The position numbers and the translations under genes are program-made. 64,000 nt of DNA from a virus. Under the pieces are notes generated by a model that did not search any database, had not been told where the DNA came from, and saw only the letters and a program-made list of their open reading frames with translations. This document shows positions 21,434 to 46,300 of this stretch, piece by piece; position 1 is the first letter of the stretch, and every line of letters starts with the position of its first letter. The stretch lies in the IMG/VR virus record IMGVR_UViG_3300033994_001756, positions 96,001 through 160,000 of that record. One strand, given 5' to 3'.

Positions 21434-21993
21434 GAAGAGAAGTATCAGCTAGAACAAAAAATACGTCACCACTTAATATATTTGAACAGGTAGATGAAAT
21501 AGCAAATAAAAAACGAAAAGGATTTCATGTCCTATCATATAGTTGGTATAAAGATACTGTTGCTGAAGTTGCTAGAAAGAATGATATTTACAAAACATTA
21601 GTTACGCTTGATGAAACTCTCATTCCTTCTGGGGGAAATCTGTATTTGTTTGAGTATAAAGCAACTTGGGCTAGAAAACTTCCATATTATGATGAGTTTC
21701 CTTTAGTGTACATGTTACAGGGTGGGAGGAAATTTTTTGGAGCTAATCTTCACTATTTAAATTATCCAACACGTTATAAAGTTCTACAGAGTATTATAGA
21801 TGGACGACCAACAATTCCTAAGCAGTGCTTTCATAATTATGTTTATGAAGGTCTTGATACACCACTATTTAAAATAAATAGTGACGACTGGATGAAATCT
21901 ATTTTTCTACCACTTGAAAGTTTTGTAAGTAGACAAGCAGGTTCATATAAGCAAGTTAGTAAATCCTTTGTCTGGGGAGACAGCCGTAAATGA
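21430..21993 (+). CDS. gp2: DNA end protector gp2-like
   Basis: LPYYDEFPLV..GANLHYL. Confidence 0.78.
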   Translation: MRREVSARTKNTSPLNIFEQVDEIANKKRKGFHVLSYSWYKDTVAEVARKNDIYKTLVTLDETLIPSGGNLYLFEYKATWARKLPYYDEFPLVYMLQGGRKFFGANLHYLNYPTRYKVLQSIIDGRPTIPKQCFHNYVYEGLDTPLFKINSDDWMKSIFLPLESFVSRQAGSYKQVSKSFVWGDSRK

Positions 21994-22823
21994 GCATCAA
22001 TACTACTCCTACAAATTTTAAAGAGTTCAAAGGTTTTGTACAAAAGCATGGCTTTTCATTAAGTAACTTTTATGATGTGCAATTTTATCTTAGTAATGAT
22101 TCTAGTAACTCTCAACTATTAAAAAATATATTTAATCTTGGGATGTCTGGTAATCCAAATAATACCAGTGCGTCTTTTATGGAAGGACTTTTAAGATTGT
22201 ATGCGGATGAATGTTCTATTCCTGGATACTCAATTTCAACTGGAGATTATAGAATAACCAATACTCCATCAATGAAATATGCATACGGTATAGTAAACAA
22301 TGAAATCACAATATCATTTATTTTAGATGCAGATGCTGAGATCAGAAGAATATTTGATGCCTGGGGTAATTATATTTACGGTAGTGTTTCATTGGCAGGA
22401 GGAGTTGTATCAAATACTAATTTGAATTTTACTACTAAAATAGATCTTGGAAGAACTAGATATCGTGATGATTATGTAACAGATATTGTTGTGGCTAAAT
22501 TGGAAAGACATAGAAGCAGTAAGAAAAATACTAGACCACGAGTTACTAATATTGATTCACAACGTAACTTCTATGATAACAAACAAATTATACCAGATTA
22601 TAATGGACCACTTCTTCCTGGATTTGGAAAACCATTTTACACATATTCAGTTAGGCTGAGGAATTGTTTTCCTACCACTATCTCTTCAATTCCATTGTCC
22701 AGTGGATCTTCTCAGTTAGTTAGAGTGCAGGTAACATTTGAATATGAACTTGCAGTGCCATCATCTCAAACTGCAGGTGGAAGTGTTCTGGAAGCATCAA
22801 ACTGGTTACAGATAACTAACTAA
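21990..22823 (+). CDS. Tail tube-like protein (gp19/gp54 family)
   Basis: CSIPG, FDAW, LRNCFPTTISSIPLS..VTFEY. Confidence 0.7.
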   Translation: MSINTTPTNFKEFKGFVQKHGFSLSNFYDVQFYLSNDSSNSQLLKNIFNLGMSGNPNNTSASFMEGLLRLYADECSIPGYSISTGDYRITNTPSMKYAYGIVNNEITISFILDADAEIRRIFDAWGNYIYGSVSLAGGVVSNTNLNFTTKIDLGRTRYRDDYVTDIVVAKLERHRSSKKNTRPRVTNIDSQRNFYDNKQIIPDYNGPLLPGFGKPFYTYSVRLRNCFPTTISSIPLSSGSSQLVRVQVTFEYELAVPSSQTAGGSVLEASNWLQITN

Positions 22824-22858: not shown

Positions 22859-23569
22859 ATGCCTTTACCTAAAATTGTAACTCCGACGTATGAATTGCGT
22901 TTACCATCAACTGATCAATTAATTAAATATAGACCATTTCTAGTAAAAGAAGAAAAAGTTCTTCTGATGGCGATGGAATCTGAAGATGAATCTCAGATGA
23001 TTAATGCAGTGAAAACCATCCTAAGAAATTGCATTAACTCTAAAATTAAAGTTGATGACCTAGCAGTATTTGATATCGAATATTTGTTCCTCAATATTCG
23101 TGCTAAGTCTGTGGGAGAACAAATCGAACTCAACATCACTTGCCCAGATGATGGGGAAACTACAGTTCCACTAGAGATTAATGTTGAGGATATTCAGATT
23201 CAAAAGTCTGAAGATCATTCTAGAATTATTTCATTGAATGATACTATTTCTGTTGTAATGAAATACCCTAGTATGGAAATGTTTGTTAAGTCAAACTTTA
23301 CAGCTAGTGTAAAAACTGAAGACGTATTTGAGATTGCTGCATCTTGCATTGAACAAGTTGTAGAAGGGGAAGATGTTTATGAAACCAAGAGTTTCTCTAA
23401 AAAAGAAATTAACGATTTCCTTGATAGCTTAGATACTGCACAGTTTTTACTGATTCAAAAATTCTTTGAGACTATGCCAAAGCTATCTCATACAGTTAAG
23501 GTTACTAACCCAGTAACAAATGTAGAAAGTGATGTGGTACTAGAAGGTCTTGCAGCTTTTTTCGCATAG
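22859..23569 (+). CDS. gp26: Baseplate hub assembly protein gp26
   Basis: MPLPKI..YRPFLVKEEKVLL..FLNIRAKSVGE..FFETMPKL. Confidence 0.9.
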   Translation: MPLPKIVTPTYELRLPSTDQLIKYRPFLVKEEKVLLMAMESEDESQMINAVKTILRNCINSKIKVDDLAVFDIEYLFLNIRAKSVGEQIELNITCPDDGETTVPLEINVEDIQIQKSEDHSRIISLNDTISVVMKYPSMEMFVKSNFTASVKTEDVFEIAASCIEQVVEGEDVYETKSFSKKEINDFLDSLDTAQFLLIQKFFETMPKLSHTVKVTNPVTNVESDVVLEGLAAFFA

Positions 23570-23751
23570 CCCTAGCGCACGAATCGCTAGAAAATTACTT
23601 TAGAATTAATTTTATATTACTTCAACATCATAAGTGGTCTCTTTCCGAAATTGAATGTATGTTACCATGGGAAAGAGAAATTTATGTTCAGATGTTAGTT
23701 GACTATATTGAAGAGGAAAATAATAGAAACAGAACAACAACATCGTTGTAG
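23557..23751 (+). CDS. gp51: gp51-like baseplate assembly frame, probably reached by -1 frameshift from gp26
   Basis: -1 frame reads FFRIALAHESLENYFRINFILLQHHKWSLSEIECMLPWEREIYV...; no ATG/GTG/TTG before the conserved part; T TTT TTC at 23557-23563. Confidence 0.75.
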   Translation, partial: FFRIALAHESLENYFRINFILLQHHKWSLSEIECMLPWEREIYVQMLVDYIEEENNRNRTTTSL

Positions 23752-23755
23752 TTAA

Positions 23756-26416
23756 ATGCCAGCCAGACAAACTCAGACATCATTTAGATCATTTTCTGAG
23801 TCACTCAGATCTAGAAGACTATCTCCAGTAAATCCATCTGCGATTACTGGAGGGAGAGTGTCTGGCGCAAATATTACAAAGAAAGAAGTAGAAGAATTCG
23901 GCCAGGTCAGAAAAATCCTTGGTGGATTATTAGCATTAGAGAAAAGATATTATCAATTTTTAGGGGATAGGATTCTACATTTTGCTAAAGAAGACGAAAG
24001 AAATAAATTAAAGCAAGAAGAGTCTGAGCAAGAAAAGAAAAAGAAACTAGGAAAGGATAAAGAAAAGAACCCTGTTTTAGAAAAAGCAAAGTCTGATCTA
24101 TCAATGATCGGAGGATTCTTCAAAAATCTTCTGAAGTTTTTCGTTGGGTATAAAGTTCTTGAGTGGGCATCCAAAAAAGAAAACATAAGCAAAATTCAAG
24201 ACTTTGCCAATCTATTCATAACGTTATTTAAATTCATTAGTGCAGTCACCAACTTTGGTGTTGATGTATTAATGAAAACTCTTACGGTTACTTCTAAAGT
24301 AATCAATGGAGTCTTTGATTTCATAGGAAAGGTAGCAGAATTTTTCAGCTTTAGTTGGCTGGGCGGTGGAGTAGAATGGCTATTATCCACCATTGAAAAT
24401 GCTACTTCTGTTATTGCAAGTATTCCAAATGCAATTACATTAGCAGTAAAATTCATGACTGATTTGATTCCAAATTTCCTGGAATCAGTTTTAACCCAAG
24501 GACTATTTGGTAGCCAGAAAGAACTAGAAGGTCAGGCTGATCAAGCAGTAGAAGCAAAGAAACCAGCAGAACCACAGACTCCATCAACAGAATCTGATAC
24601 TGGTAAAAAAGATCTAGGAGAAAAGGCAAAAGAATCACTTTCTAATATTGGAAAGAACATCCTGAAGACTCTGTTCCCAGGGATGGATGTTGCTGCGAAT
24701 ATTGGAGCCAAGATTGGTGGTTCTATTAAATCATTATTCAGTGGACCTAAAACTCAAGAGTCTCTTCCTAAGTTAGCTAAGGGTGGTATCGTAACTAAAC
24801 CAACTGAAGCGATTGTTGGTGAGGCAGGACCAGAAGCAATTCTTCCACTGGATAAATTGGGATCATTTGGTATTGATGGCTTCAAGGCATCTACCAATAA
24901 GATGATTCCTAAATTCATGAAGCTATTGACTTTACCATTTAATATTGTTGGTGCAGGAATCGTAGCATTAATTTCATCTGCAGTATCTAAAATTCCTGGT
25001 GTAGGACAATTTATACTTCCACTGATTTCTAATATTGCATCTAGCTTTGGTTTGCCTGCAGGATTGGTTGCGGGAATGAGTAATTTTGTAGGTGGTGTTA
25101 CATCTGCAATTTCTGGAGGACTTGGCAATGTAGCTGAATTATTTGGGAAGAATGAAGTCAATATACGTCAGCAGAAAGGAGAAGAGTTTTCTCCAACCAA
25201 TGATACTTCAGTTAAAGGATTACTTGGAAACATTCTTGGTGCTCTGATCAGCAAGCAAAAGAAAGCTGCCACCACACCTGGAACCACGCCTCCTCCACCC
25301 CCTTCCACCCCACCAGCCCCATCTGGAACCCCTTCTAGTGGCACTTCAGGGAGCACTCCTCCAGCTACTAAGCCGAGTTCCATATTCACGTATCCAACTC
25401 AAGGAGAGGGTGGTGTTCCTGGGCAAGGCGGTGGAGATAAAATTCCTGCATTGTTAGAACCTCAAGAGTATGTCCTGAATCGAAATGCTGTCAAGGGAAT
25501 GGGTGGTCCAAAAGTATTAGATGCTATTAACTATGGAATGTATCCAAGATTTGGTAGTGGTGGTCCAAATGTTTCAACTAAAAAGTTTTTAAAGCTTGGT
25601 GGTGGATGGGCTCCTGTACCAGAAGATTCTTCTGGTGTATCGTTAGGCAGAGGAATGAGTTCACGACATGGCGGAACAGATATTCCAATGCCAGTAGGAA
25701 CTCCGCTACTTGCACCTTTCGATGGAATGGTGAAAGAAACCGGAAAGAATCCTGATGGGTGGGGAAATTTCATGGTATTAAAAAGTTCCAATGGAGTTTA
25801 TTCTCTGTTTGGACATGTAAGTGATTATTCTAAAAAGCAAGGTGAACAAATTAAAGCGGGTGAACAAGTTGCATTAAGTGGGCATCGACATGGAGGAGGA
25901 AGAAGTAGTGGACCACATTTACATTGGGAAATTGGTAGTTCTTGGAATGGAACTATTGGTGGAAAGATAGATCCAATTAGTTGGTCCTCTGGCAAAGCTA
26001 TTCCATCTGTAAGTGGAAAAACATCATCCAGAACTAATACAGACTCTCCTGATGATTCCACAGAATCTACACCAACATTTACTGCTGAGATGGGAGCCAA
26101 AGCTGCTGAGCAGTTGGGCAAACTATTCCAGATGTTAAATGGTCCTGCACCCACTACAGTCCCAGAAGTTACCACTCCGCAGACTCCTAAAATAACAACT
26201 GCAGTTTCTGGAAACTCCCAAAATCTACAGAGAGTTCAGAGAGAAAATCTAAAAGTTCAGGCTCAAGCTAAACAGCAAACTAAAGCTGGTGGTAATGTAA
26301 TAACTCTAGGCGAGCCAAATAAAACTATTACAGAATCAAGATCTCAACCAATGACATCTACATTAGGAGGCACAACTCCACCGAATTCATTAATCAATTA
26401 TCCATTAGCACCATAA
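23756..26416 (+). CDS. Tape-measure/hub-like protein with M23 peptidase domain
   Basis: Helical N-half, GGIVTKPT..GEAGPEA motif, HGGTD..FGH..GPHLHWE. Confidence 0.75.
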   Translation: MPARQTQTSFRSFSESLRSRRLSPVNPSAITGGRVSGANITKKEVEEFGQVRKILGGLLALEKRYYQFLGDRILHFAKEDERNKLKQEESEQEKKKKLGKDKEKNPVLEKAKSDLSMIGGFFKNLLKFFVGYKVLEWASKKENISKIQDFANLFITLFKFISAVTNFGVDVLMKTLTVTSKVINGVFDFIGKVAEFFSFSWLGGGVEWLLSTIENATSVIASIPNAITLAVKFMTDLIPNFLESVLTQGLFGSQKELEGQADQAVEAKKPAEPQTPSTESDTGKKDLGEKAKESLSNIGKNILKTLFPGMDVAANIGAKIGGSIKSLFSGPKTQESLPKLAKGGIVTKPTEAIVGEAGPEAILPLDKLGSFGIDGFKASTNKMIPKFMKLLTLPFNIVGAGIVALISSAVSKIPGVGQFILPLISNIASSFGLPAGLVAGMSNFVGGVTSAISGGLGNVAELFGKNEVNIRQQKGEEFSPTNDTSVKGLLGNILGALISKQKKAATTPGTTPPPPPSTPPAPSGTPSSGTSGSTPPATKPSSIFTYPTQGEGGVPGQGGGDKIPALLEPQEYVLNRNAVKGMGGPKVLDAINYGMYPRFGSGGPNVSTKKFLKLGGGWAPVPEDSSGVSLGRGMSSRHGGTDIPMPVGTPLLAPFDGMVKETGKNPDGWGNFMVLKSSNGVYSLFGHVSDYSKKQGEQIKAGEQVALSGHRHGGGRSSGPHLHWEIGSSWNGTIGGKIDPISWSSGKAIPSVSGKTSSRTNTDSPDDSTESTPTFTAEMGAKAAEQLGKLFQMLNGPAPTTVPEVTTPQTPKITTAVSGNSQNLQRVQRENLKVQAQAKQQTKAGGNVITLGEPNKTITESRSQPMTSTLGGTTPPNSLINYPLAP

Positions 26417-26417
26417 A

Positions 26418-29396
26418 ATGGAAAACTTAACACCAGTTAGACCAGCTTCCATTATAGGTAATAGTCGTCTAAGAGAAATCAAGACGATAAAGGGTATTGC
26501 ACAAGATTTAGTAAAGCAGAAAAAACAGAATTTTGAATTGGAAAAAAAATTCTTCAAAATTCAAAAGGATACTATTGATAGAAATAAATTAAGAGACAAA
26601 GAAAGACTTCAGGAAGCAAAGAAACCAAAAAGAAAAGCTGGATTTGTTCGTGAAGAACTTAAAGATAAGTCTATAAAACTATTTGATTTGTTCAAGTTCT
26701 TTGTAGGATATAAAGTATTACAGTGGATGTCTCGCAAAGAGAATATTGAATCTATTGGCGAAATCGCCAAAGCCATGAAAAATATTTTTAAGATTATAGA
26801 TCATCTTGCTGGTATTGGAGTTGAAGGAGTTCTTGGTGGACTTCATAGTGTTCTATTTGGAAGCAACTTTTTAGAAAGATTTTTCGGAATATTTAAACTC
26901 ATAGGTGGCTTTTTCATTATCAGGAGACTATTGTTTCCAGGTAAAATACTTAAAGACATTACTTGGATATTAAAGAATAGAAAGTCTATTGGTAAAGTAT
27001 TCCAAGCATTAGGATCTGGAAAACTTAAAGAAGCTCTTGGAAGACTATTTAAACTATTAACTCCAAATTTATATGTTGTATATACCAGAGGATTGACTGC
27101 AGGAGTTAAGCGAGTAATTCTTAAAGTATTTGGAAAGAATACTTTAAAACTCCTGACTAAGGTAGCTTCTAAAATTGGATTCAGAAGTGCAAAAGAGTTT
27201 GTAAAAAATACTGCAAAAAATATTGCCAAGCCTTTAACTAGAATACCTTTCATTGGACCTATACTTGGCTTTGGATTAAATCTAATTTTTGGTGATCCAC
27301 TAGACAAGGCTGCAGTCAAAGCAATTGGTGCTGGGATTGGAGCATGGCTAGGTGGTATTGTAATGGGCGCATTGGGAAGCATCGTTCCTGTTGCAGGAAC
27401 TGCAGCTGGTGCTGGACTTGGTGCATTTGTTGGTGGATTTATTGGAGACTGGGTTGGTGATAAATTATACGGATTCTTTAAAGGATTCACCGCACCTAAA
27501 GAACCTGCACTTGCTGTTGGTGGTATTGTAACCAAGCCAACCAGGGCTTTGATTGGTGAGGCTGGGCCAGAAGCAGTTATTCCGCTACCAAAAATTTATG
27601 ATAGAACTATATTAAATGCTCCTATGGGTATAGTTGCATCTTCTATGATTGGGGGGATAGATGCAGTTATATCTTCATTGGGTCCTGTTGGCTTAACGAT
27701 TAGACCATATGCATCTAGTTTACTAGCTCCATACAGAAGAGAGTTTGGATCTACCAACTATGTGTTCACTTCTAATATTGGAGGTAAGACTACACCTTTA
27801 ACTACTAAACTTCCAGAGCAAAATGACAACGAGGAAGTTGCTAAAATACTTGGTCTGAATAAAACCATTAATTTAATCAAGAAAAAGGAAACTGCAGAAG
27901 AGGCTAAAAAAGCCAGATACAATTCTGGGAATAGTGTTCGTGAAATTCTTGGAGATATTCTAAACAATATTATCAATCTAGACTTTACTAAAAAGTCTAA
28001 AAAGAAAACACGCCCAGGTGATACAACTAGAAATGGGGATATTGGTGAAGTTGGTGGGGAAGTAGATTTATCTGACGCTGACGATAGAACTTTATTAAAG
28101 CAACTAGCACTTGCAGAAGCTGCAGGTGAAGGTGTTGTTGGAATGGCATTGGTTGTCAATTCTGTGTTGAATAGAAAGCGAATTTTAGATGGTGGTGCTT
28201 CTCCTGGATTATTCCATGCAACTGATAAAACTATTCGTGGAATAATATACGCCAAAGACAGTGTTCAATATACTCCAGTTCAAAGTGGCACTATTAACAA
28301 GCAGTGGGGTGAAGGATCACTGAACCTTGCAGAGAAAGCTTTGCAAATGGGAATGGATAAGTCTAAGTTGAGACAAGCATTGGAAGCTGAAGGAGTTAGT
28401 GAAAATAGTATAAAATTTCTAATCAATTCAACTGGATTTAGAAACTATGATGCAGGTGCAAGCAATGATAGATCTCAGAAGGTTAATGAGACTGTATATA
28501 AACGGCACACCTTTAATACTGCGGGTGTCCCTAAGATGCAACAAGGTGGTTTAGTTTCAAGAGGAGATATTACGAGTAAGTTTGGAAATAAAGAATCATT
28601 TAGAAAAAATTCTCATGAAGGAATTGATATTGCATTTCCATCTGGAACTCCTTTATCATTTACTTTAGGTGGAAAATTTCTTAAAGTTGCTAGAAGTTCC
28701 AGTAAAGAAAGAGAAGCAAATGGTGGCTATGGTCAATACATGGATCTTAAGTTATCCGATGGAAAGATTGCCAGACTTGCACACCTAAGCTCTATCCCCA
28801 ATTGGGTAAAGCAGGGTGGCGATTTCACACCAAATGCAATTGTTGCATTAAGTGGTGGCGCACCAGGAGCACCTGGCTCTGGTAGATCTGGTGGGCCACA
28901 TTTACATTTAGAGCAACACACAACTCAAAAAGATTTAGCAGAGACTTTAAATGGTAAGGTTGATCCATTATCACAAGGTCTATTTGGATTATTGAGGAAA
29001 GGTGGTGCCCCTGGAAGTGCAACTAGTGGACCTGCTCAACCTTCACAATCTCCAGCTGCATCCCCGAATACAGTAAAAGAGTCGGAAGAATCTCAGCAAG
29101 AATCGCAACCGCCACCAATTAATTATGATGACATTGCTAAAAATCTAGGAGAATTGTTCCAGATGTTAACTGGAACTCCAAAGACAAATGGTGCTCAGTT
29201 ACAAAAAAATAGTATGGATTATGTCCAAGCATTCAAAGACTTCAAGCCAAATCCAGATACATATATTATGATGGGTGGAACTAATATAATTTCAAGTACT
29301 ACATTGTTGACTCCAATTGAGCAACTAGATTATTCTTCTGGATCATTCTCAAGTATAGATAGCGCAACTGCGTTTAAACTCAACACAAGACTCTAA
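26418..29396 (+). CDS. Tape-measure/hub-like protein with SleB-type hydrolase and M23 peptidase domains
   Basis: Gly-rich hydrophobic region; AEAAGEG..VVNSVLNR..QYTP..HTF; HEGID..LAHL..GPHLHLE. Confidence 0.75.
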   Translation: MENLTPVRPASIIGNSRLREIKTIKGIAQDLVKQKKQNFELEKKFFKIQKDTIDRNKLRDKERLQEAKKPKRKAGFVREELKDKSIKLFDLFKFFVGYKVLQWMSRKENIESIGEIAKAMKNIFKIIDHLAGIGVEGVLGGLHSVLFGSNFLERFFGIFKLIGGFFIIRRLLFPGKILKDITWILKNRKSIGKVFQALGSGKLKEALGRLFKLLTPNLYVVYTRGLTAGVKRVILKVFGKNTLKLLTKVASKIGFRSAKEFVKNTAKNIAKPLTRIPFIGPILGFGLNLIFGDPLDKAAVKAIGAGIGAWLGGIVMGALGSIVPVAGTAAGAGLGAFVGGFIGDWVGDKLYGFFKGFTAPKEPALAVGGIVTKPTRALIGEAGPEAVIPLPKIYDRTILNAPMGIVASSMIGGIDAVISSLGPVGLTIRPYASSLLAPYRREFGSTNYVFTSNIGGKTTPLTTKLPEQNDNEEVAKILGLNKTINLIKKKETAEEAKKARYNSGNSVREILGDILNNIINLDFTKKSKKKTRPGDTTRNGDIGEVGGEVDLSDADDRTLLKQLALAEAAGEGVVGMALVVNSVLNRKRILDGGASPGLFHATDKTIRGIIYAKDSVQYTPVQSGTINKQWGEGSLNLAEKALQMGMDKSKLRQALEAEGVSENSIKFLINSTGFRNYDAGASNDRSQKVNETVYKRHTFNTAGVPKMQQGGLVSRGDITSKFGNKESFRKNSHEGIDIAFPSGTPLSFTLGGKFLKVARSSSKEREANGGYGQYMDLKLSDGKIARLAHLSSIPNWVKQGGDFTPNAIVALSGGAPGAPGSGRSGGPHLHLEQHTTQKDLAETLNGKVDPLSQGLFGLLRKGGAPGSATSGPAQPSQSPAASPNTVKESEESQQESQPPPINYDDIAKNLGELFQMLTGTPKTNGAQLQKNSMDYVQAFKDFKPNPDTYIMMGGTNIISSTTLLTPIEQLDYSSGSFSSIDSATAFKLNTRL

Positions 29397-34324: not shown

Positions 34325-37300
34325 ATGGCTCTAACTAGAATTACATCTGGTGGTATTGCGGAAGGCGTTGTAATAAAGTTTGATCAAAATAATAGCCCAA
34401 CAGCTCCAGCTATTGGATTTGAAGGTGTAGGTAATACTGGAACTGGTATTTACAGCCCAGCAAATAATGAATTAGCTATTTCTACAGATGGTCAAACACG
34501 ATTGACCTTTAAACCTGATGGTAAAATCATTGCAGGGAATGGAACTATTCTAGGTGGAACAAACCCAGACTTTGAGAATGCAGAGAATATCACTCTTTAT
34601 GTAAACCAGTCTGACAAAAATGCTACCGACCTAGAAGATAATGATGGTGGTAATTTAAATAGACCATTCAAAACTATTGAAAGAGCATTACTAGAGGCAG
34701 CAAAGAGAAGTTATAAACCAAACCCAACTGCGATTTCCGTAAGTACATTAGAAGTTGGTAAAGCATATACTATTGTAAACGCAGGCAATACTGATTTTGT
34801 TTCTATTGGTGCATCGTCTAATACTGCTGGTGTATCTTTCATTGCTACCGCACAAGGAAATGGAACTGGTACAGTAGTTCTAAGCAATGATAAGTTTGAG
34901 GCATTTACCATTATGGTTCTGCCTGGTCAATATGAAATTGACAACAGACCTGGATATGATATTACTACCAACCCGCTATCTGCAGGAACTGCTGTTGCAA
35001 TTGATGCAGAGCCATTTAGATTTAACCCAAGAAATGGTGGCGTTATTGTACCTAGAGGTACTTCAATTGTTGGTTATGATCTCAGAAAAACTGTTATCAG
35101 ACCTAAGTATGTTCCTTCACCATTTTCAATTGATGGAAGCATAACCAGTGATGGATATATTCTGTACCATACCATGTATGATGGTGCAAATATGGTTGAA
35201 AAGAATCGTGGTTATATTCAAGAGCAAACTAAATTATATCTTCAAGGAAATCAAGCTGGATATAATGGTTTAAATGATGCTCAAAAGAATCTATGTATTC
35301 GTGATATTGGCTATTTTATTGATGCTATTGTTAAAGATTTAAGGCAAGGTGGCAACGAGAATACCTTCAATAATGCAGAATATTATATTGATGGTAATGG
35401 CTACAGAACACAATTCTTGAAGTCTGGTGATAGTGATTTATCTCAAGAAGTTGCAGCTACAGTAGCCGCATTTAATCATGCGATTAGCATTATGAGATTT
35501 ATTACAAAATCTTATAATGATAGTAGCATTACATATTCAGAAATTACTTCTGGCAAAACTATCAACAGAACTACATTCTCTGCAGGAAATGGATATGTTT
35601 CCGATGGAGATTGTTCTGCTGTAGTTAATGCTGTAGCAACTTTAGGTGCTATTGCTACTGGAATTCTCAACAATCCAGATGATTACACTAGAGAAGCAGT
35701 TACAGTAACTCTTGTTGGTGGCGGAACTGCAACTGTAAAGCTCAGAAAAACTCAAGGAGTATTTAATCAAACCTCAATCTTTAAGGTAACTGGTGGTTGC
35801 TACTTCTGGCAGATGACCTTCAAGGATGCTGTTGCAACATCATCAAAGCCAATTTATAATGGAGCTTCATTTGATTCAAATGGAATTCCAACATTCAGCA
35901 CTACCACTGATTCAAAATATTCTCACCATAGAGTTGTTGCATTTACATATGCGGATCAAAGAACAACTGATGGTGAACTAGATCAGTACTATAAAAAAAT
36001 TGATGCATGGCAGGGAAGACCAGATACATCTCAAGTAAGACCAGAAGAATATACTATCGTTGGTGATGGAAGTAAGAATAGCACTATTGATACTGTTAAT
36101 TCTTGCTCACCATACATTTTTAACTGTTCACTACGTTCTGTCTTTGGTATGTGCGGTATGCATACTGATGGCAGTAAGGTTGCAGAAAACAGCTTCAAGT
36201 CCATGGTTGTTGCACAGTTCACTGGTATTTCTCTACAAAAAGATAGAAGTGTATTCATTCAACCTAAAGATTTACAAGGAGATACTAACGTAACTCCATC
36301 TCCAAACACAACCACATTATATAATGATGATGATGAATCTACTACTGCAAAACCTCCAGTATTTGCAGATCCAGACGCAGAATATAAGCCAGAATGCAGA
36401 CACTTCCACATCAAAGCATCCAATGGTGGATTCATTCAGGTAGTTTCTGTGTTCGCAGTTGGATATGCTGATCAATTCCTTGCAGAAACTGGTGGTGATA
36501 TGTCTATCACCAACTCCAACTCTAACTTTGGTCAGATTTCACTTCGTGCAAAAGGTTCCCAGTTTAATTCCTTTGCTCCAGCATCACAAGGTAGAATCAC
36601 TGCAGTAGTTCCACCTAAAGGAATCTCACCAACTCTCAATGATGTAAGTTTCTATAATATTAATGCTGGTCCAACTTGGGGTCCAAGTACATTCGCAACA
36701 AGTGAAGAATTAACTCCAGCAGTATTAAGTGCTCTTGCAGGTTTCACTAACTCAAAATATTTTAGTCTATATCTTGAAACTGGTGCAACTAATGAAGATA
36801 GTATTCCAGAATTAATTGTTACTAGTACAGATAAAGTTACCGGCAATAAAGTAACAAAACGATTCCTAAGTTATGGAACTTCAAATCAATACTCACTTTT
36901 CCGTGATTATTATCAAGTTACTGGAATTTCTCCAGAATCATCTAGGTATATTAACTTAGAATTAGAAAGTTCTACTGGTGGTGAACCTAGTAAATTTAGA
37001 GCAAAGGTAAAGATATTCGATCCAACTGATATTCCAGATGAAGATAATCCAAAAGTTAATAATGTTCCAACAACAAAGAATGCAGAAAGAGTTGGATATT
37101 TCTGGGATAATAATGGAGTATATTTAAAACTAGATTATACTGATGCAGATACTAGAAAATTCCTAACTGATTTTATCTTTTCATTCAATGAAGAAAAATC
37201 ATTTGATTTTGTAACTAAATTTAATCCTGGTGATGGTTCAGCTACAACTGCACTTGAAGAAGTAACTAGAAAACTTTTAAGATATAAGACTGGATTCCCA

Positions 37301-40300
37301 TCAACTTTAACAATTAAAAAATACTTAGATACTAGAACATCTGCACCTTCAGAACTATTATGGAAGCTTGAATATACTATTCCAAAATACTTAAGTAGTA
37401 ATGCAATTCCAAAGGCACCAGAGAAAAGATTTATTATCAAAGGAACTAGAGCAGGTAATGGTGAAGATGGAATTCCATACTCAGACTATAGATTTATGGT
37501 ATGGGATGTTCAAGAAGTTACTTCTTGGGAAAAAGATGTTAGAGATGGTGTATATTATCTAACTGTTATTAGATGTGACGTAAATAAGTTTGCTGATTCT
37601 TCCGCAAATTCACCGTCTACCATCGAAAGGAGACCTACTGGAATTGATGCTCCTGGAACTGGAACTACTACAACATCATTTAGTTCTACATTTATTGAAG
37701 AAGTTAATAACTTTGATAAAGATACTAAACTATTCACAAATATAAATTATCTATATCCTTCTGTAAATGAAGAAGGTCCAGATTATGATACTAGAAGAGT
37801 TTGGAATTTCCCACAAGCAGATTCTCGTGTATTACTTGAAAATATTGGCCAGGGAAATAGAATTAAAGATATCTCTGTTCCAAACTTTAAGAGTTTTAGA
37901 ACAACTGATTCTACTACTCCATTTAAAGATATTCCATCTTTATATTCAGTTACTGCAGAATCTGTTCATAGATTAGTTCAAGCACTAGATCTAAGATATA
38001 TCACATCTTCTAATACTATGGCCACTACAGGTGGTGGCCCAGATAACTCTGGTAGAGTATTCATTGCCCCAGTTGCACCATGGGATTCTAGAACTTCTCA
38101 GTCTGCATTGGGGTATACTTCAAGTTCAACTTCTTTTAATGTATATTCTAGTTCAATTAGATTTGGTAGAGGTCCTGCAGGATCAATAGTTACCGAAGCA
38201 TCAAAAATTACAGAGTATAATAATTTTGGTGTTAACTTGGATGCTGCGGATAGAAGAATTATCGTTACTTCTCCTGGCTATGTTGTAAATTCCAATACTA
38301 TACAAGCTAGTAGTGATGCCAATCAAACTGGACTGACTTATGCTCCATTATTACCACTTTATAGACCTTCTATTCTCCGTGCATCTTCACACACTTGGGA
38401 ATATATTGGTCTTGGTTCTGGTAACTATTCAACTGGCTTCCCAAATCTACAAACAAGAGTTCTTAAAATCTATGAGCAGTTTATTGCTCAGGGCTATGAA
38501 AATTCTGGTGGATTTATTGCATCATCTGGTACAAACTCTGCTGGTGATTTCTATATTGGAAACCAAATCATTCAAGCTGGTGGTACTTCTACAGTAACAC
38601 TAAACGTACCAAAGCTTCGCAAATCATCAGAATCTAATTATCTAGATATTGACAATATTGAAAACCGTATCTCAAATGCAGTTGTCAATGTTACCGATAC
38701 TGCTGATGGCTCTGGGGCAAATGCAAATCAGAGTGCATTGAAAGAACTATCCAACTTCTTCAACATTGCAAAGCTAACCGTTAGCGACAAAGCAAATATC
38801 AATAACTTGATCATTGGAGAAAGACTATTCATTGACAGAGCTGAAATTAATAATTCTGCATTCTTCCCAGAAGGTAATACTAATGCATATGGTTTCGTAA
38901 AAGCTGCTAAACCTGAAAAAACTGGTTTTATTTCAACTGATACTAACGATAAACTATATGTTTCTCCTAAGTACCTTGATGCATGGAGAGTAAAGAGGCA
39001 ACTCATTTCTGCTCAAGCAGTTACACTTGATAACAACAGAGTTTATGTTCAACCATATCTACAAAACTCTGTCGATTCATATAAATCAGTAAATGGAAAG
39101 AAAGTAGCTGATGCAATTACATTTACAAATACTGTAGTAAATGATGTTACTTGGTCAACTAGTTCAGTAATTAAACTAGCATTCACTGAAAGTTCTGGTA
39201 TTCCTTCTTATGGTAAAATTGATATCGAAATGAATTTAATCGGTCTAACTGTTACCGATTTTTATGTTGATGGATCGGGAAATAAAATTTACTTCAATCC
39301 TGTTATTAATATCCCACTTCAATATCAAGAAATTGATTATACTGATAATACAGCTGTAATTTCAAATTATCAAAATGGAATTGCATTACCTACATATCTA
39401 AGAAGTTATTGTGGCAATGGAACTTATACTTCCATAATTAAAAACTATCCATCTATCATTGCTACTGGTGGAAATTTTGGAACAGATGCATCTGAGGGAG
39501 ATATTAAATATCTAACCGCAAAACTTGCAAGTAACTTCACCAACAATAATGATATTAACGTATTAAATACTTCAACATATAAAGATCTGCAGGTTACTAT
39601 GACTGCAGATGAATATCAACAATGGCCAAATAGAGGTTGCATTTCATTAAGAGAAGCTCCTAAAGGAGGAACATATAAAATTGCTACATTTGCATATTAC
39701 AAAACTGGACACAATAGTGGAACTAATGTTGCAACATTTAAACTAACTAAAAACGTTGGAGAAGGAACTAATACTGCTGGAACTAGCGCCCAATTTACAA
39801 CTGACTACGAAAATAATTATCCAGGAATTGCATCTAAAAATGTATTCTTCTTTGGATGTAGTACTCAGGTCTATTCTTCTGATAGATGGGCAGCCGAATC
39901 TCCATTCATTCCACCTCTAGATCCAACAAAGGGTGTAGTAGAGGAAGTTAATATTGAAGATGCAATTCTGTACACTAGCCCACAAAAATCTCTTCCAGTT
40001 GCAGTAACTCTTGATCAAGATTGGTTTGATAAGAATTTACCTAATCCATATAGCTCTAAAGCTCTTGGTGTTAATATTCAAGAAAGAAGAGCAGTTAAGA
40101 AATTTAGCCCTCTATTCTCATTCTCCCAGGCAAAGCAGTGGGCAGAAAACTCTGGATTTACTTCTGCTGATGAACTAGAACTTCTTATGAAGCCTGGTTA
40201 TTACAAACTAGATGGAACTCAGTTCCCATGCTCTGTTAAAATTAATGGTACTGGAGTTGCAAATAGCAGTGTATTTGCTGGTAAAGAGCGTACTCGTACA

Positions 40301-43300
40301 TCTGCAGGTAGAATGGGTGGATACCTAGAAGATACTGTCCGAAGAGGAGATAGCATTTATCTTTATCGCTCTCCCGAGTTTTACACACAATGGGGATTTG
40401 GAAATGATGCAATGTATGTAAATGTGAGTGGAGGACTTGGTGCAAATGGCTCATTTAATGTTAATAATGTACATTTCCTTGGATTAAATGAAGCGATTAC
40501 CAAGAGTGAAATTCCTGACTCCATTTATACCTCCAATCCGGTTCTTCAAAATGCCAGAAGAGTAGTAAGAAGAGCATATTATATTAAAGGAAAAATTAAA
40601 TCAACTCCATCATTGAATACCATCAACAGCACTGGAGTTGACGGTGCAATTGAAGTGATTGCAAATGTTTCTACTGGAACTGGAGTAAACGCTTTACTAG
40701 TACCAAGTGTCAATAGTATAGATATTGTAAATGATATTGCAGATAATGCAAATTATTATGAATTAAACTCTGCTACTATTTCAAATAGTCGTTATTTAGT
40801 AGTAGTACTGAAGCAAAGTGACTTTACTGCGGAACAATTTGACCGCATGAGAAAATATATCATTCCAGGTACAACCATGTATTGGTTGGCAGAGAATGGT
40901 AAAGTAATTAAACTATCAGATGAAGCTACTGTTGAAAATCTATCCAAGTCTACTAAAGTTCTAAGTGTCAGAAGAAAGAACGCTGGTCTCAATACAGAAG
41001 AAATTCAGGTATTAATTTCAGTATATCGCACTGCAGGTGGCAATAATGGCAATAATGCAAGTTATACTAATCCCGTAGAAGATTTAGATCTAGAAGGATA
41101 TACATCTGGAAAGAGAAAACTAGTCTTCCTCAATGAAGATGGAGCAGAATTTACCACACTTGCATACAACTGGGCACTTGAAACTAGAAGGCAGTTCCTT
41201 CCAAAAGGATTCATGCATGAAGGTGGTTATCAGTCAGCAATTATTAAAACAGTAGTTTCTGGTGGAGCTAGTGGAACTAAAACAATTACATTAGACAATG
41301 TTGAATCAATTTTAACAGGGGACAAAATTGTAGCTTTAGATTCTGCTGGCAACAATTTAATTCCAGTTGGAACAAGAGTAGAGACTATTGTAGGAAATGT
41401 AATTACATTAACTGATAACATTACCACAAGCATCCCTGCTCAATCATTTGTATCATTTACACAGTTTAATATTTTTGGTGATGAGATTACTAAGTATGAT
41501 ATTCCTGAAATTTATGGTATCATACGTGGTTCTGAAGAAGGATACATTTCACTTATAATTGATAGAAATCCAAACTATGAAGTTGATAATTCCATTCAAC
41601 CTTATCCATATGGTGCTGGTTCATTCTCAGAATATCCAACTCAATTAATTCAATTAAAAACAACACCAACTTCAACTACAACTAATTATGGTGCAGCTGA
41701 AGATGTTGCTATTGCTACAAACAGAAAGAAAGCTCTTCCATTGAGACGAAATGGTTTCACTGAAACTAGATATCTTGTTCTTGATATTGCTCCTAGAGAA
41801 TTTGGCGCTATCCCTGCAGGAAATGCATCAAATCCAAACGCAGCTACATCTATTGATTCATTTATTGAGAATGCTGGAATTTCTAAGACTATTCTAACTC
41901 AGTTTGCAAACTATGATAACACCACTCTGCAATTTGGTGGTGGTATTGGTAAAGGATTTGTACAGCCAACTATAAACTTTAATAATATTACTATTGCTGC
42001 TAATGCTGAGTTTACAATTGGAAGTAATGATATTCAAAGTGCAATTAATACTGCATTGAATTCTGCAGGAAGCCTCACAAATACTAGAAGTTACAATGAT
42101 AGGCTATTTGCATCTTTAGTATCTAATGGAGGAACTTCATCTAATGTTGCGTTGTATGCAACTATTAATGTTAGCACTGGAGCTATTACTTCAGTTATGG
42201 CGTATAGACTTAACAGTACTCAACAAACTACCATTAATGGTTCATTTAGAATTCAGATTAATGATGGTAGAGGATTTATTCTTTCTCCTACAGGAAGAAC
42301 TGTATCATTATCAGATAACCAACTATCTGCTGACGACTTTAAAGTTGTTGCAAAGCAAAATCTTCTATCTGCAATTGCTACTACTCCAGATACTACAGGT
42401 GGTGGATCATCTCCATATCTAGATTATGTTAGAAAGAGAACAACTGGTCCTGGAGCAAATGTAGATGATGATGCACTAACTGCTAGAGGTAAAAAGATAT
42501 TTCTATCTTGGCCATATGCATATAGAGCACTCAGAAGAAGATTCCCATCTGCAGGATTCCCTGTCAATGGTAACTATCAGAGCAGCCTAATTACCGTAAA
42601 TGCAATTCCAGGATCTGGGTTCACATTAAACCTAACTGGGGTTACAATTGGTGCTCAATCTCCTGCTTCTGAAGCTGCAAATACATTTGGTGGAGGATAT
42701 CGTGGAGGACTGATCAAGTGTAGAGGTTCTAAACTAACCCTAAATGGAACTAGATTTAGAGGAAATCTATCTCTTGATTGGACTGGATTGTTTAGTGGCA
42801 ATTCATCTAGAGTTGGAGGTAGCTTCATTGCTGGGCACTCTATTGAGATGTTCCAGATGGAAGATCAGAATGAATTTACTCAAATGGGTGGAGATTTACC
42901 TGCATATGCAATTGCTACTTCTCCACAAGATGAAGAATTTAGAACTCTATCAGAATATAATCCACAATCAAATATTTACCTAGAGCCATCTAAGGATCCA
43001 TATGGTAGATTATCCGATGGTGATGCTAGAACATTCCCAATTAATACACTACAAGCTATTAGAAGATTTAATAAGTCTTCTCAGGGTGTAGTTCCTTGGA
43101 CTGGAGAAAGTGAAATTCCTAAAGGAGGATTACTGACAAAAGTTGCATTGAATGAAAGATATCAAACTCCTAATAAAATTTATTATGATGCTCCAAACGG
43201 AACTCCAACTGGAAATCATATTCCTACTGCATCTGGAAATAGTTCTGCTGTATTATTAAGATGGAATGATGGCACTACAACCATCACTTCTAGTTCTCAA

Positions 43301-46300
43301 TTGTCAATGCCTACATCTGTAGTTTCATATGCACAATTAGAACCTAAGACATTATCATTCTTCTATGCAAACAATGAAGCAGGTGAAGATATTATTAGAA
43401 ATATCTTCGTTGGTAGGAATGCAAGTAAATTTGTTAAATTTGATAACATTGAAACTACTTACGCAACAGCAACTAAAGTTATTACCACTGGGGATACATT
43501 CTTTATCAATTCTAGTACTGGAGCTGTAACTAGAGCTGGAGCTGGACAATCAGGAGATTATAAGTTTGTAAAAATTACATATTCCGGATCTTTCTCTGCA
43601 CTATCTAAAGTTAATTCAACAAAGATTGATATTAATGTTAACTATCTAAGTTCAATTAGATATAACTATGTTGCAACTGCAACTTCACGTTATCAAAAGA
43701 CTATTGTAGGAACTAACTCAAGATTAATTCTTTCCCAAGATGATAACGTTATTAGATACTCTGAGCCAGCTAACTTAGCAATCTCTAATATTGATTCTAC
43801 ATTTACAGTAGCAAATGCTAGCAGATCCACAATTTATGAATTGAGAAATGTCACAAGACCTTCTGCAACATCTGGTAAAGTTGTATTGTCTACAAATAGC
43901 AGTGGAAAATTAACCAGCCTAGATATCATTTCTATTGGTAGTGGACATCTCAAGAATGATGTATTTGAAATTTATAGTGGAGCTACAAAAATCTCTAATA
44001 CATTTACAATGACAGTTAGAGATAATTACAATGAAGAATTACTTGAACTATTTGAAAATGGTGAATTTAAAGTCATTCTTCCTAACAATTGCTTTATTGT
44101 AAATAGTGTAGAAAATCCAACTATTGCTTCAAATCTAAAATCTCAGATACTAAAATCTAAGTCTATATTTAAGCCTGGTGGATATATTTTATATAATAAC
44201 ATTTATTACAAGATCGCTGTTAATAATCCTACAACTAACAGTCCATACATAGGTGTATACAAATATATCAATGAAACTAACACCTCTGATATTAGAGCAG
44301 ATATTGTAGTGATGTTAGAAGATTCTGAGTATTCTCCAACATATCCAAGCAATACAAGATTTGATGTCTTTGATTATGACAATATCCTAGATTATTGGCC
44401 TGCAACAGGAAGAATTGTAATTGGTAATCGTGAAACATGTGACTTCACAAAGGCCGGAAATTCATCAGATCCTAAGGGATATGAGCTTCGTCTAACAAGA
44501 AGCATGACCAAGTACTGGCCACATTACATTCGTGACTGGGAAGGTCTAGATCCAAACAATTCTTCTGATGCTACTGTTACCGTTGATAGTGTTATTCCTA
44601 CTACACTTACATTAGCAGATCCAGTAGATGTAACTTGTTATGGAATTAAGAGATTCAATGCTACAGGATCTGGAAATAACATTGAAGGTATTACTTATGG
44701 TGGATCATCTACATATGTAACTCCTACTGGAATTGTAGCTAATAAACTTGCTAAAATATCAATTAGTTCTACTACTGATGCACAAGGATTACTCGCTGAC
44801 TTTGAAAAACTTTCAATTGGTCAGACTGTTACTATTCCATATAGAGATATTTCAAAGCCTGCTGTAAGTGGACAAGCTGCAACTAACTGGAATGCAGTCG
44901 AAATTGTTGTTGGCGATCCTCAAAATACAGCCGCATCTAACATCTCAAGTAATAGAGAAGGTGATAGACGTATTAGTGGAAGTATTGCATATAGAACTTC
45001 AGGATTTAAAGCTGTATTTTATAAGCATACTTATAATATTCATGCAACTAATACTCAAGATACCTCAATTTATCAGTATATCAATCCTCTTGTTTCTGCA
45101 AACTTAAGTTCCGCAAGAGATTCTTCTGTTGAGCAACTTCACCCAGGTGGATTTAGGAGATGGGGATATCTCGGTGCTATAAGTGGATTAAATGCAAATG
45201 CTGGCCAAAAAGCTCTCACAATTTCTTCTGCATTCGTAAGAAGTATGCAAAGAATTTCTAGTGCTGCAACATTTGTAGCTACATTTGATGCAATTGATAC
45301 CCCAAATGATCCATATGAAAGATTAATGACTGTTTCTGCCCAGCCATCATTTGGAGCAATCACAAAAGGTCAACCTTTATACTTAAATTCAAATTATACT
45401 AACTTGATTGGTTATGTGGTTGGTATGGATGGAGATGTCCGCTCATTAGATGATGGAACATATGAAGATTCTATTAATCTATCTGGAAATGGAGGAATTG
45501 GAACCTACAGAGTTCTACTTGTAGAAAATCCACCAGCACTAACTGGAAATGTGACAGTATATGGACAAAAAAATTCAACAGATTGGTTATATTATGCTCC
45601 AAACAATTGCTGTTGGATAAATAATGTCGATTATAAAGTTGTAAATTCTGATAATACAACAACTGTATATCTAAACAATAATCTAGTTGATCCTGATGGA
45701 GGAAGAAATCCTGGAGATAATCCTCCTGGCGATGGTAGCGCAAGCACACTTTCAATCGCTGCAGGTTCTAATATTGTATTCTACTATAGTGGTTATTATG
45801 ATAATAGTATAATTTTAACTCTAGATAAACCATTGACTAAAGCTATTCCAGAGGGAACGAAATTTAATATTGCACCTACACCAGACTATGGTTATAATAA
45901 TGACTATGGACATCCTGGAAAGGGACAAAATAATTCATTCCTATTCAAGTCAAGAATTCTTGATCTGGAAAAGGATGGCACAAATGGCAAGATTAATGTT
46001 TACCTTGCAGATCCATTCCCAACTGCAAATTGGAACCGAGATTCATCCGGAGCATTACTAGCGGATGGTTCAACCACATCAAGTCCAGTTAAAACTTACG
46101 GTATGATGTACATTAATCATGGTGGATGGACTTATCCTAAGACTGGTGGTAGTGCATTCCGTGCAAATAATATTAAACTTGCTAATGCAAATGCTAGTGA
46201 TTCAGTATTCTGCACTGAAATTTATCTTCCAAATAGAAGTGGTAGAGTTAGAGCTGGAGATTTACTGTCATACACTTGGGAAGATATCTACAGAATTCAA

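Follow-up and report, generated by a model that had tools for sequence, protein, structure and literature searches.

The tail assembly chaperones of phage lambda, gpG and gpGT, are encoded by two overlapping ORFs located between the tube and tape-measure genes, and the first of these ORFs carries an X_XXY_YYZ heptamer close to its end. A -1 slip on this site, G_GGA_AAG, gives the minor long form gpGT beside the major short form gpG. The -1 frameshift of tail assembly chaperone genes is reportedly conserved, as Xu, Hendrix and Duda are said to have described in Mol Cell in 2004. A second well-described -1 frameshift is that of E. coli dnaX, which takes place on A_AAA_AAG, with a Shine-Dalgarno (SD)-like element upstream and a hairpin downstream. 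Phage T4 has two distinct, divergently transcribed genes, genes 26 (208 aa) and 51 (249 aa), in agreement with the original prediction for the locus described here, which had taken them as two genes. The T4 proteins gp26 and gp51 are hub assembly chaperones, of which gp51 is essential and absent from the particle (Leiman et al. 2010, PMC3004832). It was also noticed that gp51 of cyanophages and marine vibriophages is devoid of the first ~200 residues of T4 gp51, for which no explanation was given there (Sullivan et al. 2010, PMC3037559). Short and long forms of the T4-like chaperone have been reported by Vladimirov, Gautam and Davidson (Virology 2022;566:9-15, PMID 34826709), according to the statements of two citing papers (PMC10885494 and PMC12846349). 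The PRFect paper, where it cites this work, states that in some T4-like phages the frameshift is replaced by two genes, a short one and a long fusion gene, and the phage Adele paper, in its citation of Vladimirov et al., mentions that TAC-N genes of T4-like phages contain poly-T signals for -1 frameshifting. A direct literature search on a gp26/gp51 frameshift returned no report, and this prior work surfaced through the reference list of the PRFect paper. As far as these citing passages go, the identification of gp26/gp51 as chaperones and the frameshifting of T4-like phages appear to be published already, and the present locus appears to be a new and well-supported example with no new principle; it adds nothing surprising about this particular phage.

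The locus lies in a window of 64,000 nucleotides, the whole stretch of DNA that was analyzed, taken from an IMG/VR virus record (IMGVR_UViG_3300033994_001756) of 172,253 bp that has terminal repeats and is rated 100% complete. Among isolates, myoviruses of Synechococcus and Prochlorococcus come closest to the record (64-66% nucleotide identity), and only one PF12322 gene, gp26, is found in the whole 172-kb record. Judged from its sequence, this gene is very probably decoded in two ways, through a -1 ribosomal slip on TTTTTTC that gives a short and a long protein. As the putative tail (baseplate-hub) assembly chaperone gene of a T4-like phage, it would be read by most ribosomes as GCU UUU UUC GCA UAG, with release of the 236-aa short form. 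A minority of ribosomes, as we infer for the efficiency of the slip, would move back by one base with two tRNA-Phe on U_UUU_UUC, continue in the -1 frame (CGC AUA GCC...), and extend the protein by 62 residues, predicted to form the three-helix 'gp51' domain, for a total of 297 aa. The short and long forms would then correspond to T4 gp26 and gp51 and, functionally, to the major short gpG and minor long gpGT of lambda, and the chaperone pair may act on the tape-measure-like proteins encoded directly downstream. The features concerned, all on the + strand, are as follows.

21990..22823, +, tail-tube-like gene directly upstream of gp26 (PF23849 Phage_TTP_2, E 1e-13; phrog_45 'tail tube', E 1.5e-31)
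22859..23569, +, gp26 ORF, frame 0, short chaperone form (TAC-N, 236 aa), from the ORF list, PF12322 and phrog_150
22859..23751, +, predicted trans-frame product gp26-51 (TAC-NC), 297 aa, of which 235 from frame 0 and 62 from frame -1
23543..23547, +, SD-like GAAGG located 9 nt before the heptamer, candidate for an upstream stimulator, weak here
23557..23563, +, slippery heptamer T_TTT_TTC in X_XXY_YYZ phase, seen in the sequence and conserved in relatives
23563..23751, +, -1 frame segment of 62 codons and TAG, gp51 C-terminal domain, without a start codon of its own
23567..23569, +, 0-frame stop TAG of gp26, one codon past the heptamer, seen in the sequence
23572..23590, +, 6-bp hairpin (CUAGCG-7 nt-CGCUAG; -7.3 kcal/mol) located 8 nt past the heptamer, candidate for a downstream stimulator
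23756..26416, +, tape-measure-like protein of 886 aa with an M23 peptidase domain, directly downstream (PF01551, E 7e-21; weak tape-measure PHROG matches)
26418..29396, +, paralogue of the preceding protein, 992 aa (PF01551; BLASTP)

The 3' end of gp26 reads GCA GCT TTT TTC GCA TAG in the window, and the in-phase T TTT TTC that the original prediction had located at 23557-23563 is present there. No stop interrupts the -1 frame between 23533 and the TAG at 23749-23751; the 64 codons first attributed to it are roughly right, the count being 62 codons from the slip site, with a product that begins R-I-A-L-A-H-E-S-L-E-N-Y-F-R... The gp51-like nature of this product, also proposed at the outset, agrees with its match to phrog_634 'baseplate hub assembly catalyst' (E 9e-26), which is accompanied by a weaker match to the C-terminal end of phrog_150, the profile of the gp26 family (positions 236-276 of 282). 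The first ATG, GTG or TTG of the -1 frame is ATG 23659, which corresponds to residue 33 of 62, mid-domain, and so stands about halfway through the conserved region as had been described. The junction peptide announced in advance is identical to the one obtained on building the fusion.

Within the T-rich window, the count of TTTTTTC is at chance level (29 observed against 31.6 expected), and the significance of the heptamer can come only from comparison with relatives. A set of 165 loci, each with a complete gp26 and a short gp51, was assembled from IMG/VR and from isolates, the latter infecting cyanobacteria, Pelagibacter (SAR11), Vibrio (KVP40-like), Sinorhizobium and Ochrobactrum; it comprises 70, 40, 20 and 7 clusters at 90, 70, 50 and 40% gp26 identity, respectively. 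The original prediction had suggested looking for TTTTTTC and the -1 phase at the ends of gp26 in related phages, and T_TTT_TTY was found in all 165 loci, as NNT TTT TTY in phase and with gp51 in the -1 frame every time. The heptamer is TTTTTTC in 149 loci and TTTTTTT in the other 16, and the codon before TTT TTY always ends in T (AGT, TCT, GCT, AAT, GAT, ACT or CAT). From the codon usage of the same genes, a slippery form would be expected for 24% of x-Phe-Phe sites, and the chance that 20 of 20 lineages are slippery is 0.24^20, or ~6e-13. As an internal control, the other Phe-Phe pairs of the same gp26 ORFs were considered, and only 2 of these 155 are slippery, TTC TTT being the commonest form. 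The gp26 stop lies 0-3 codons past the heptamer in 158/165 loci and 8 codons past it in 7. These seven form the clade of Pelagibacter phage Mosig and its relatives, in which the 0 frame runs 8 codons beyond the heptamer with the heptamer itself and the -1 frame unchanged, indicating that a nearby stop codon is not required.

The junction was then considered at the level of single columns, in an alignment of 51 representatives (80% clusters) over 86 nt, with the gp26 stop and the presumed intergenic spacer included. There are no gaps or indels in its 86 columns. Upstream of the heptamer, entropy at the three codon positions of frame 0 is 1.19/0.85/1.68 bits, and in the 24 nt straight after it the values in frame -1 are 1.29/0.90/1.69 bits, so that the codon-periodicity signal changes frame exactly at the heptamer. 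Within the heptamer, the three wobble positions have entropies of 0, 0 and 0.5 bits, compared with 1.7-1.9 bits at neighboring wobbles. These patterns bear on the proposal that gp51 is a separate small protein, started from a non-canonical codon (e.g. AUA 23566) or from ATG 23659, or made when ribosomes that terminate at the gp26 stop reinitiate. GenBank records do carry a separate gp51 of 44-57 aa, and some lineages have an ATG located 3-4 codons past the heptamer; in lineages such as P-SSM2 and KVP40-like phages, an ATG near the junction makes separate initiation possible. However, no ATG, GTG or TTG is found from the heptamer to the conserved gp51 motif in 74/165 loci, this start-less state being shared by all members of 15 of the 40 clusters defined at 70% identity, and no alternative start codon is conserved. 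Conservation reaches at least 90% at residues L9, N16, F17 and H23 of the -1 product, which in the window all come before the first ATG, so a start at ATG 23659 would remove them. A separate start also sits poorly with a junction that never gains or loses a base and would leave the invariant wobble bases of the heptamer unexplained. Since -1 coding periodicity begins at the heptamer itself, there is no room for a ribosome-binding site, and the P-SSM2 ATG is buried in an 11-bp hairpin (-15.6 kcal/mol). Separate initiation of gp51 is thus regarded as very unlikely.

The lack of a start codon in the window could also be read as a sign that the -1 ORF is a decaying and unexpressed remnant of a once separate gene 51. 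This seems barely credible, given strong purifying selection on the -1 frame across lineages with <40% gp26 identity, a -1 ORF that is uninterrupted in all 165 loci, and the essential role of gp51 in T4 (Leiman et al. 2010, PMC3004832). The 62-residue -1 domain was modeled as three helices, with a pLDDT of 79. When longer proteins carrying the gp51 domain were searched for, only two were returned. One is an in-frame gp26-gp51 fusion of 207 aa (P0001) from an ENA metagenome contig, which was set aside: its junction (...LQSFSISSSHESLEN...) is odd, it is seen on a single contig, and it probably results from a homopolymer miscall in the T run. The other was set aside as a mis-called read-through. 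The precomputed Pfam list of P0001 includes PF28602, which is absent from the local Pfam copy and may be the gp51 C-terminal domain.

A ribosomal slip is not the sole way in which a T run could join the two frames. If RNA polymerase added an extra U on the T6 run, the edited mRNA would encode the same gp26-51 fusion, and reasoning from the sequence gives an identical protein, ...A-F-F-R-I-A..., for both routes; the longer T7 run of 16/165 loci fits transcriptional slippage as well. Known bacterial transcriptional slippage runs consist of roughly 9 or more T, compared with which T6 is short, and the C at heptamer position 7 is kept by selection in 149/165 loci, the run not being lengthened. Furthermore, a synonymous preference for GAGG upstream and the presence of hairpins downstream fit a ribosomal mechanism. 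Altogether, transcriptional slippage is considered very unlikely as the source of the long form, and the -1 ribosomal slip is the reading retained below.

The upstream element consists of conserved Leu-Glu-Gly-Leu codons, which in relatives yield GAGGG or GAAGG ~9 nt 5' of the heptamer. At the Glu codon of this SD-like site, GAG is used 26 times against 10 for GAA, compared with a ratio of 358:808 elsewhere in gp26 (binomial p 4e-7). GAGG is found in most lineages, and the window carries the weaker GAA form (GAAGG). Such a bias is what selection for a dnaX-like SD-like element would produce, and in the window GAAGG might accordingly be a stimulator, albeit a weak one. Downstream of the heptamer, RNAalifold on the 51 representatives gave no consensus structure. 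The hairpin of the window was tried as a family-wide stem and rejected: 44% of cells pair, no better than in shuffled or slid controls, and no covariation is seen. This short hairpin, a candidate stimulator, persists in most members of the window's clade, with no compensatory changes, and its energy is unremarkable (z -1.4). Across the family, the 45 nt after the heptamer are on average more stably folded than shuffled sequences, with a mean z of -1.27, compared with -0.41 in control windows inside gp26. In P-SSM2, the hairpin that contains the annotated gp51 ATG was located at 2205-2240 of the locus (L001), ~5 nt past the heptamer, with z -5.3, and similarly strong hairpins occur in four other loci (L039, L065, L038 and L060). 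A hairpin of the P-SSM2 type would favor slipping and hinder separate initiation. A possible resemblance of the gp26 family to dnaX lies in the SD-like GAGG or GAAGG that precedes the heptamer by ~9 nt, for which relatives show the synonymous GAG bias, and in the hairpins that follow the heptamer in many lineages at a distance of 5-8 nt. It differs from dnaX by its heptamer and by hairpins that are lineage-specific and not conserved; moreover, the dnaX slip shortens the protein, whereas the gp26 slip would lengthen it.

The relation to T4 is visible in the proteins themselves. In T4 gp51, residues 1-201 make up a full PF12322 domain (E 4e-52), the family to which T4 gp26 also belongs, and the last ~48 residues are the domain that constitutes the entire small 'gp51' here. 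A profile of the 51 predicted fusions aligns with T4 gp51 in a single stretch and crosses the junction without a gap, and T4 gp26 aligns with the same profile up to Phe-Phe and ends there. If the frameshift operates as proposed, the ~200 residues missing from gp51 in cyanophages and marine vibriophages would be supplied by gp26 via the slip. A full-length PF12322 domain and a colinear gp51 C-terminal domain are common to this locus, with its predicted long form, and to the T4-like TAC-N/TAC-NC pair. The difference is that T4 has two divergent genes and has lost the slippery codons, Phe-Phe of T4 gp26 being encoded by the non-slippery G TTC TTT, whereas the window phage has one gene and a slip site; a 58%-identical relative has G TTT TTT, which is also out of pattern. 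In a FastTree phylogeny based on PF12322 domains, T4-type gp26 groups with gp51-N (support 0.95), and the frameshifting KVP40-like vibriophages are the sister group of this clade (support 0.93), in a tree that includes just two T4-type genomes and has long branches. This placement suggests, as a lead, that the two-gene state of T4 is a derived duplication. Searches for related loci gave none with the Vibrio gp26 as query and only 7 with T4 gp26, so the two-gene control group is small. In a broader scenario, which is put forward tentatively and is rather doubtful as a whole, the slip would be the ancestral route to the chaperone pair for all T4-like phages, and T4 genes 26 and 51 would be a later duplication in which each copy fixed one product and the slip site was lost; the slip would in addition be tuned by a dnaX-like GAGG element, maintained through selection at synonymous sites, and by lineage-specific hairpins, inside which the leftover AUG of some phages would be hidden. 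Should the frameshift reading hold, the family would be a clean natural example in which a single recoded gene, the state of most lineages, has given way to two ordinary genes in T4.

At the level of the protein family, gp26 matches PF12322 T4_baseplate over its full length (positions 2-219 of the 219 in the profile, E 1e-73) and also phrog_150 (E 7e-82). Neither of the sequence-based searches pointed to a lambda-type chaperone: Pfam gives only PF12322 for gp26, with no lambda-type chaperone family, and a profile search of PDB sequences returned no chaperone match. An AlphaFold2 model of gp26 was obtained with a pLDDT of 87. A Foldseek search of this model against the PDB gave nothing at E <= 0.001, 2ob9 being at E 1.4. 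Exhaustive structural alignment (VIA) of residues 1-95 ranked three small proteins first, 3fgx at Z 7.9, the HK97 tail assembly chaperone 2ob9 at Z 7.5 and YqbN 3klu at Z 7.3, all with Z <8, the range flagged as possibly coincidental; the following rows were 5ir0 (Z 5.3) and then others at 4.6 or less. The best structural match with a named function is thus the HK97 chaperone, and the modeled N-domain is suggestive of a tail assembly chaperone fold.

On the + strand, the gene order is head closure, DNA end protector, tube-like gene, gp26/51, two M23 paralogues, a tail protein and a gp5-like hub lysozyme, and the opposite strand carries baseplate wedge and tube-cap genes. This order resembles the tube, chaperone and tape-measure order of long-tailed phages, with tape-measure PHROG matches that are weak. 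The original prediction had called the downstream genes tape-measure-like; this holds in part, with a Peptidase_M23 domain to be added, a tube-like gene found upstream, and the weakness of these PHROG matches as its limit. Products of 26418-29396 and 23756-26416 are 27% identical over 580 aa (E 8e-28, BLASTP). These tandem paralogues of 992 and 886 aa share an N-terminal region, a GGIVTKPT..GEAGPEA..PL motif and the M23 domain, the 992-aa protein having an additional weak Hydrolase_2 match, and together they occupy the place expected for a single tape measure gene. Farther along, downstream of the gene for the gp5-like hub lysozyme, 34325-48031 (+) is a single ORF of 4568 aa.

Like lambda, the locus has two overlapping ORFs, here between a tube-like gene and genes with weak tape-measure matches, an X_XXY_YYZ heptamer shortly before the first ORF ends, and a long form made, by prediction here, through a -1 slip. 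Under the frameshift reading, gp26 would work like a member of a lambda G/GT-type pair, but it is no sequence relative of one; it has an extra C-terminal half (residues ~96-236), and its heptamer is U_UUU_UUC in place of G_GGA_AAG. A further difference would lie in the clients, here putative hub or tape-measure-like proteins that carry M23 peptidase domains. The proposal first made for this locus, that gp26 and a gp26-51 fusion are the equivalents of G and GT, finds support in the conservation of the slip site, the frame switch, colinearity with T4 gp51, the position of the gene and the suggestive structural match to the HK97 chaperone, with a slip that is predicted from these features.

The practical value of the locus lies in the correction of annotation: many gp51 entries in GenBank/RefSeq should become joined ribosomal-slippage CDS. 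A joined slippage CDS was absent from all of the records examined, among them S-BM3, ACG-2014e, S-T4, Ochrobactrum OC and Pelagibacter Mosig. In the public records of S-BM3 and ACG-2014e, ~180 nt after gp26 are left unannotated. In those of S-T4, Ochrobactrum phage OC and Pelagibacter phage Mosig, gp51 is started at an internal TTG, GTG or ATG, with the loss of conserved residues. In Vibrio phage TCU-VP03-AIR1 (L089, 659-1507), the gp26 homologue is labeled 'deoxynucleotide monophosphate kinase' and its tube-like neighbor 'tail completion and sheath stabilizer', both of which are probably annotation errors.
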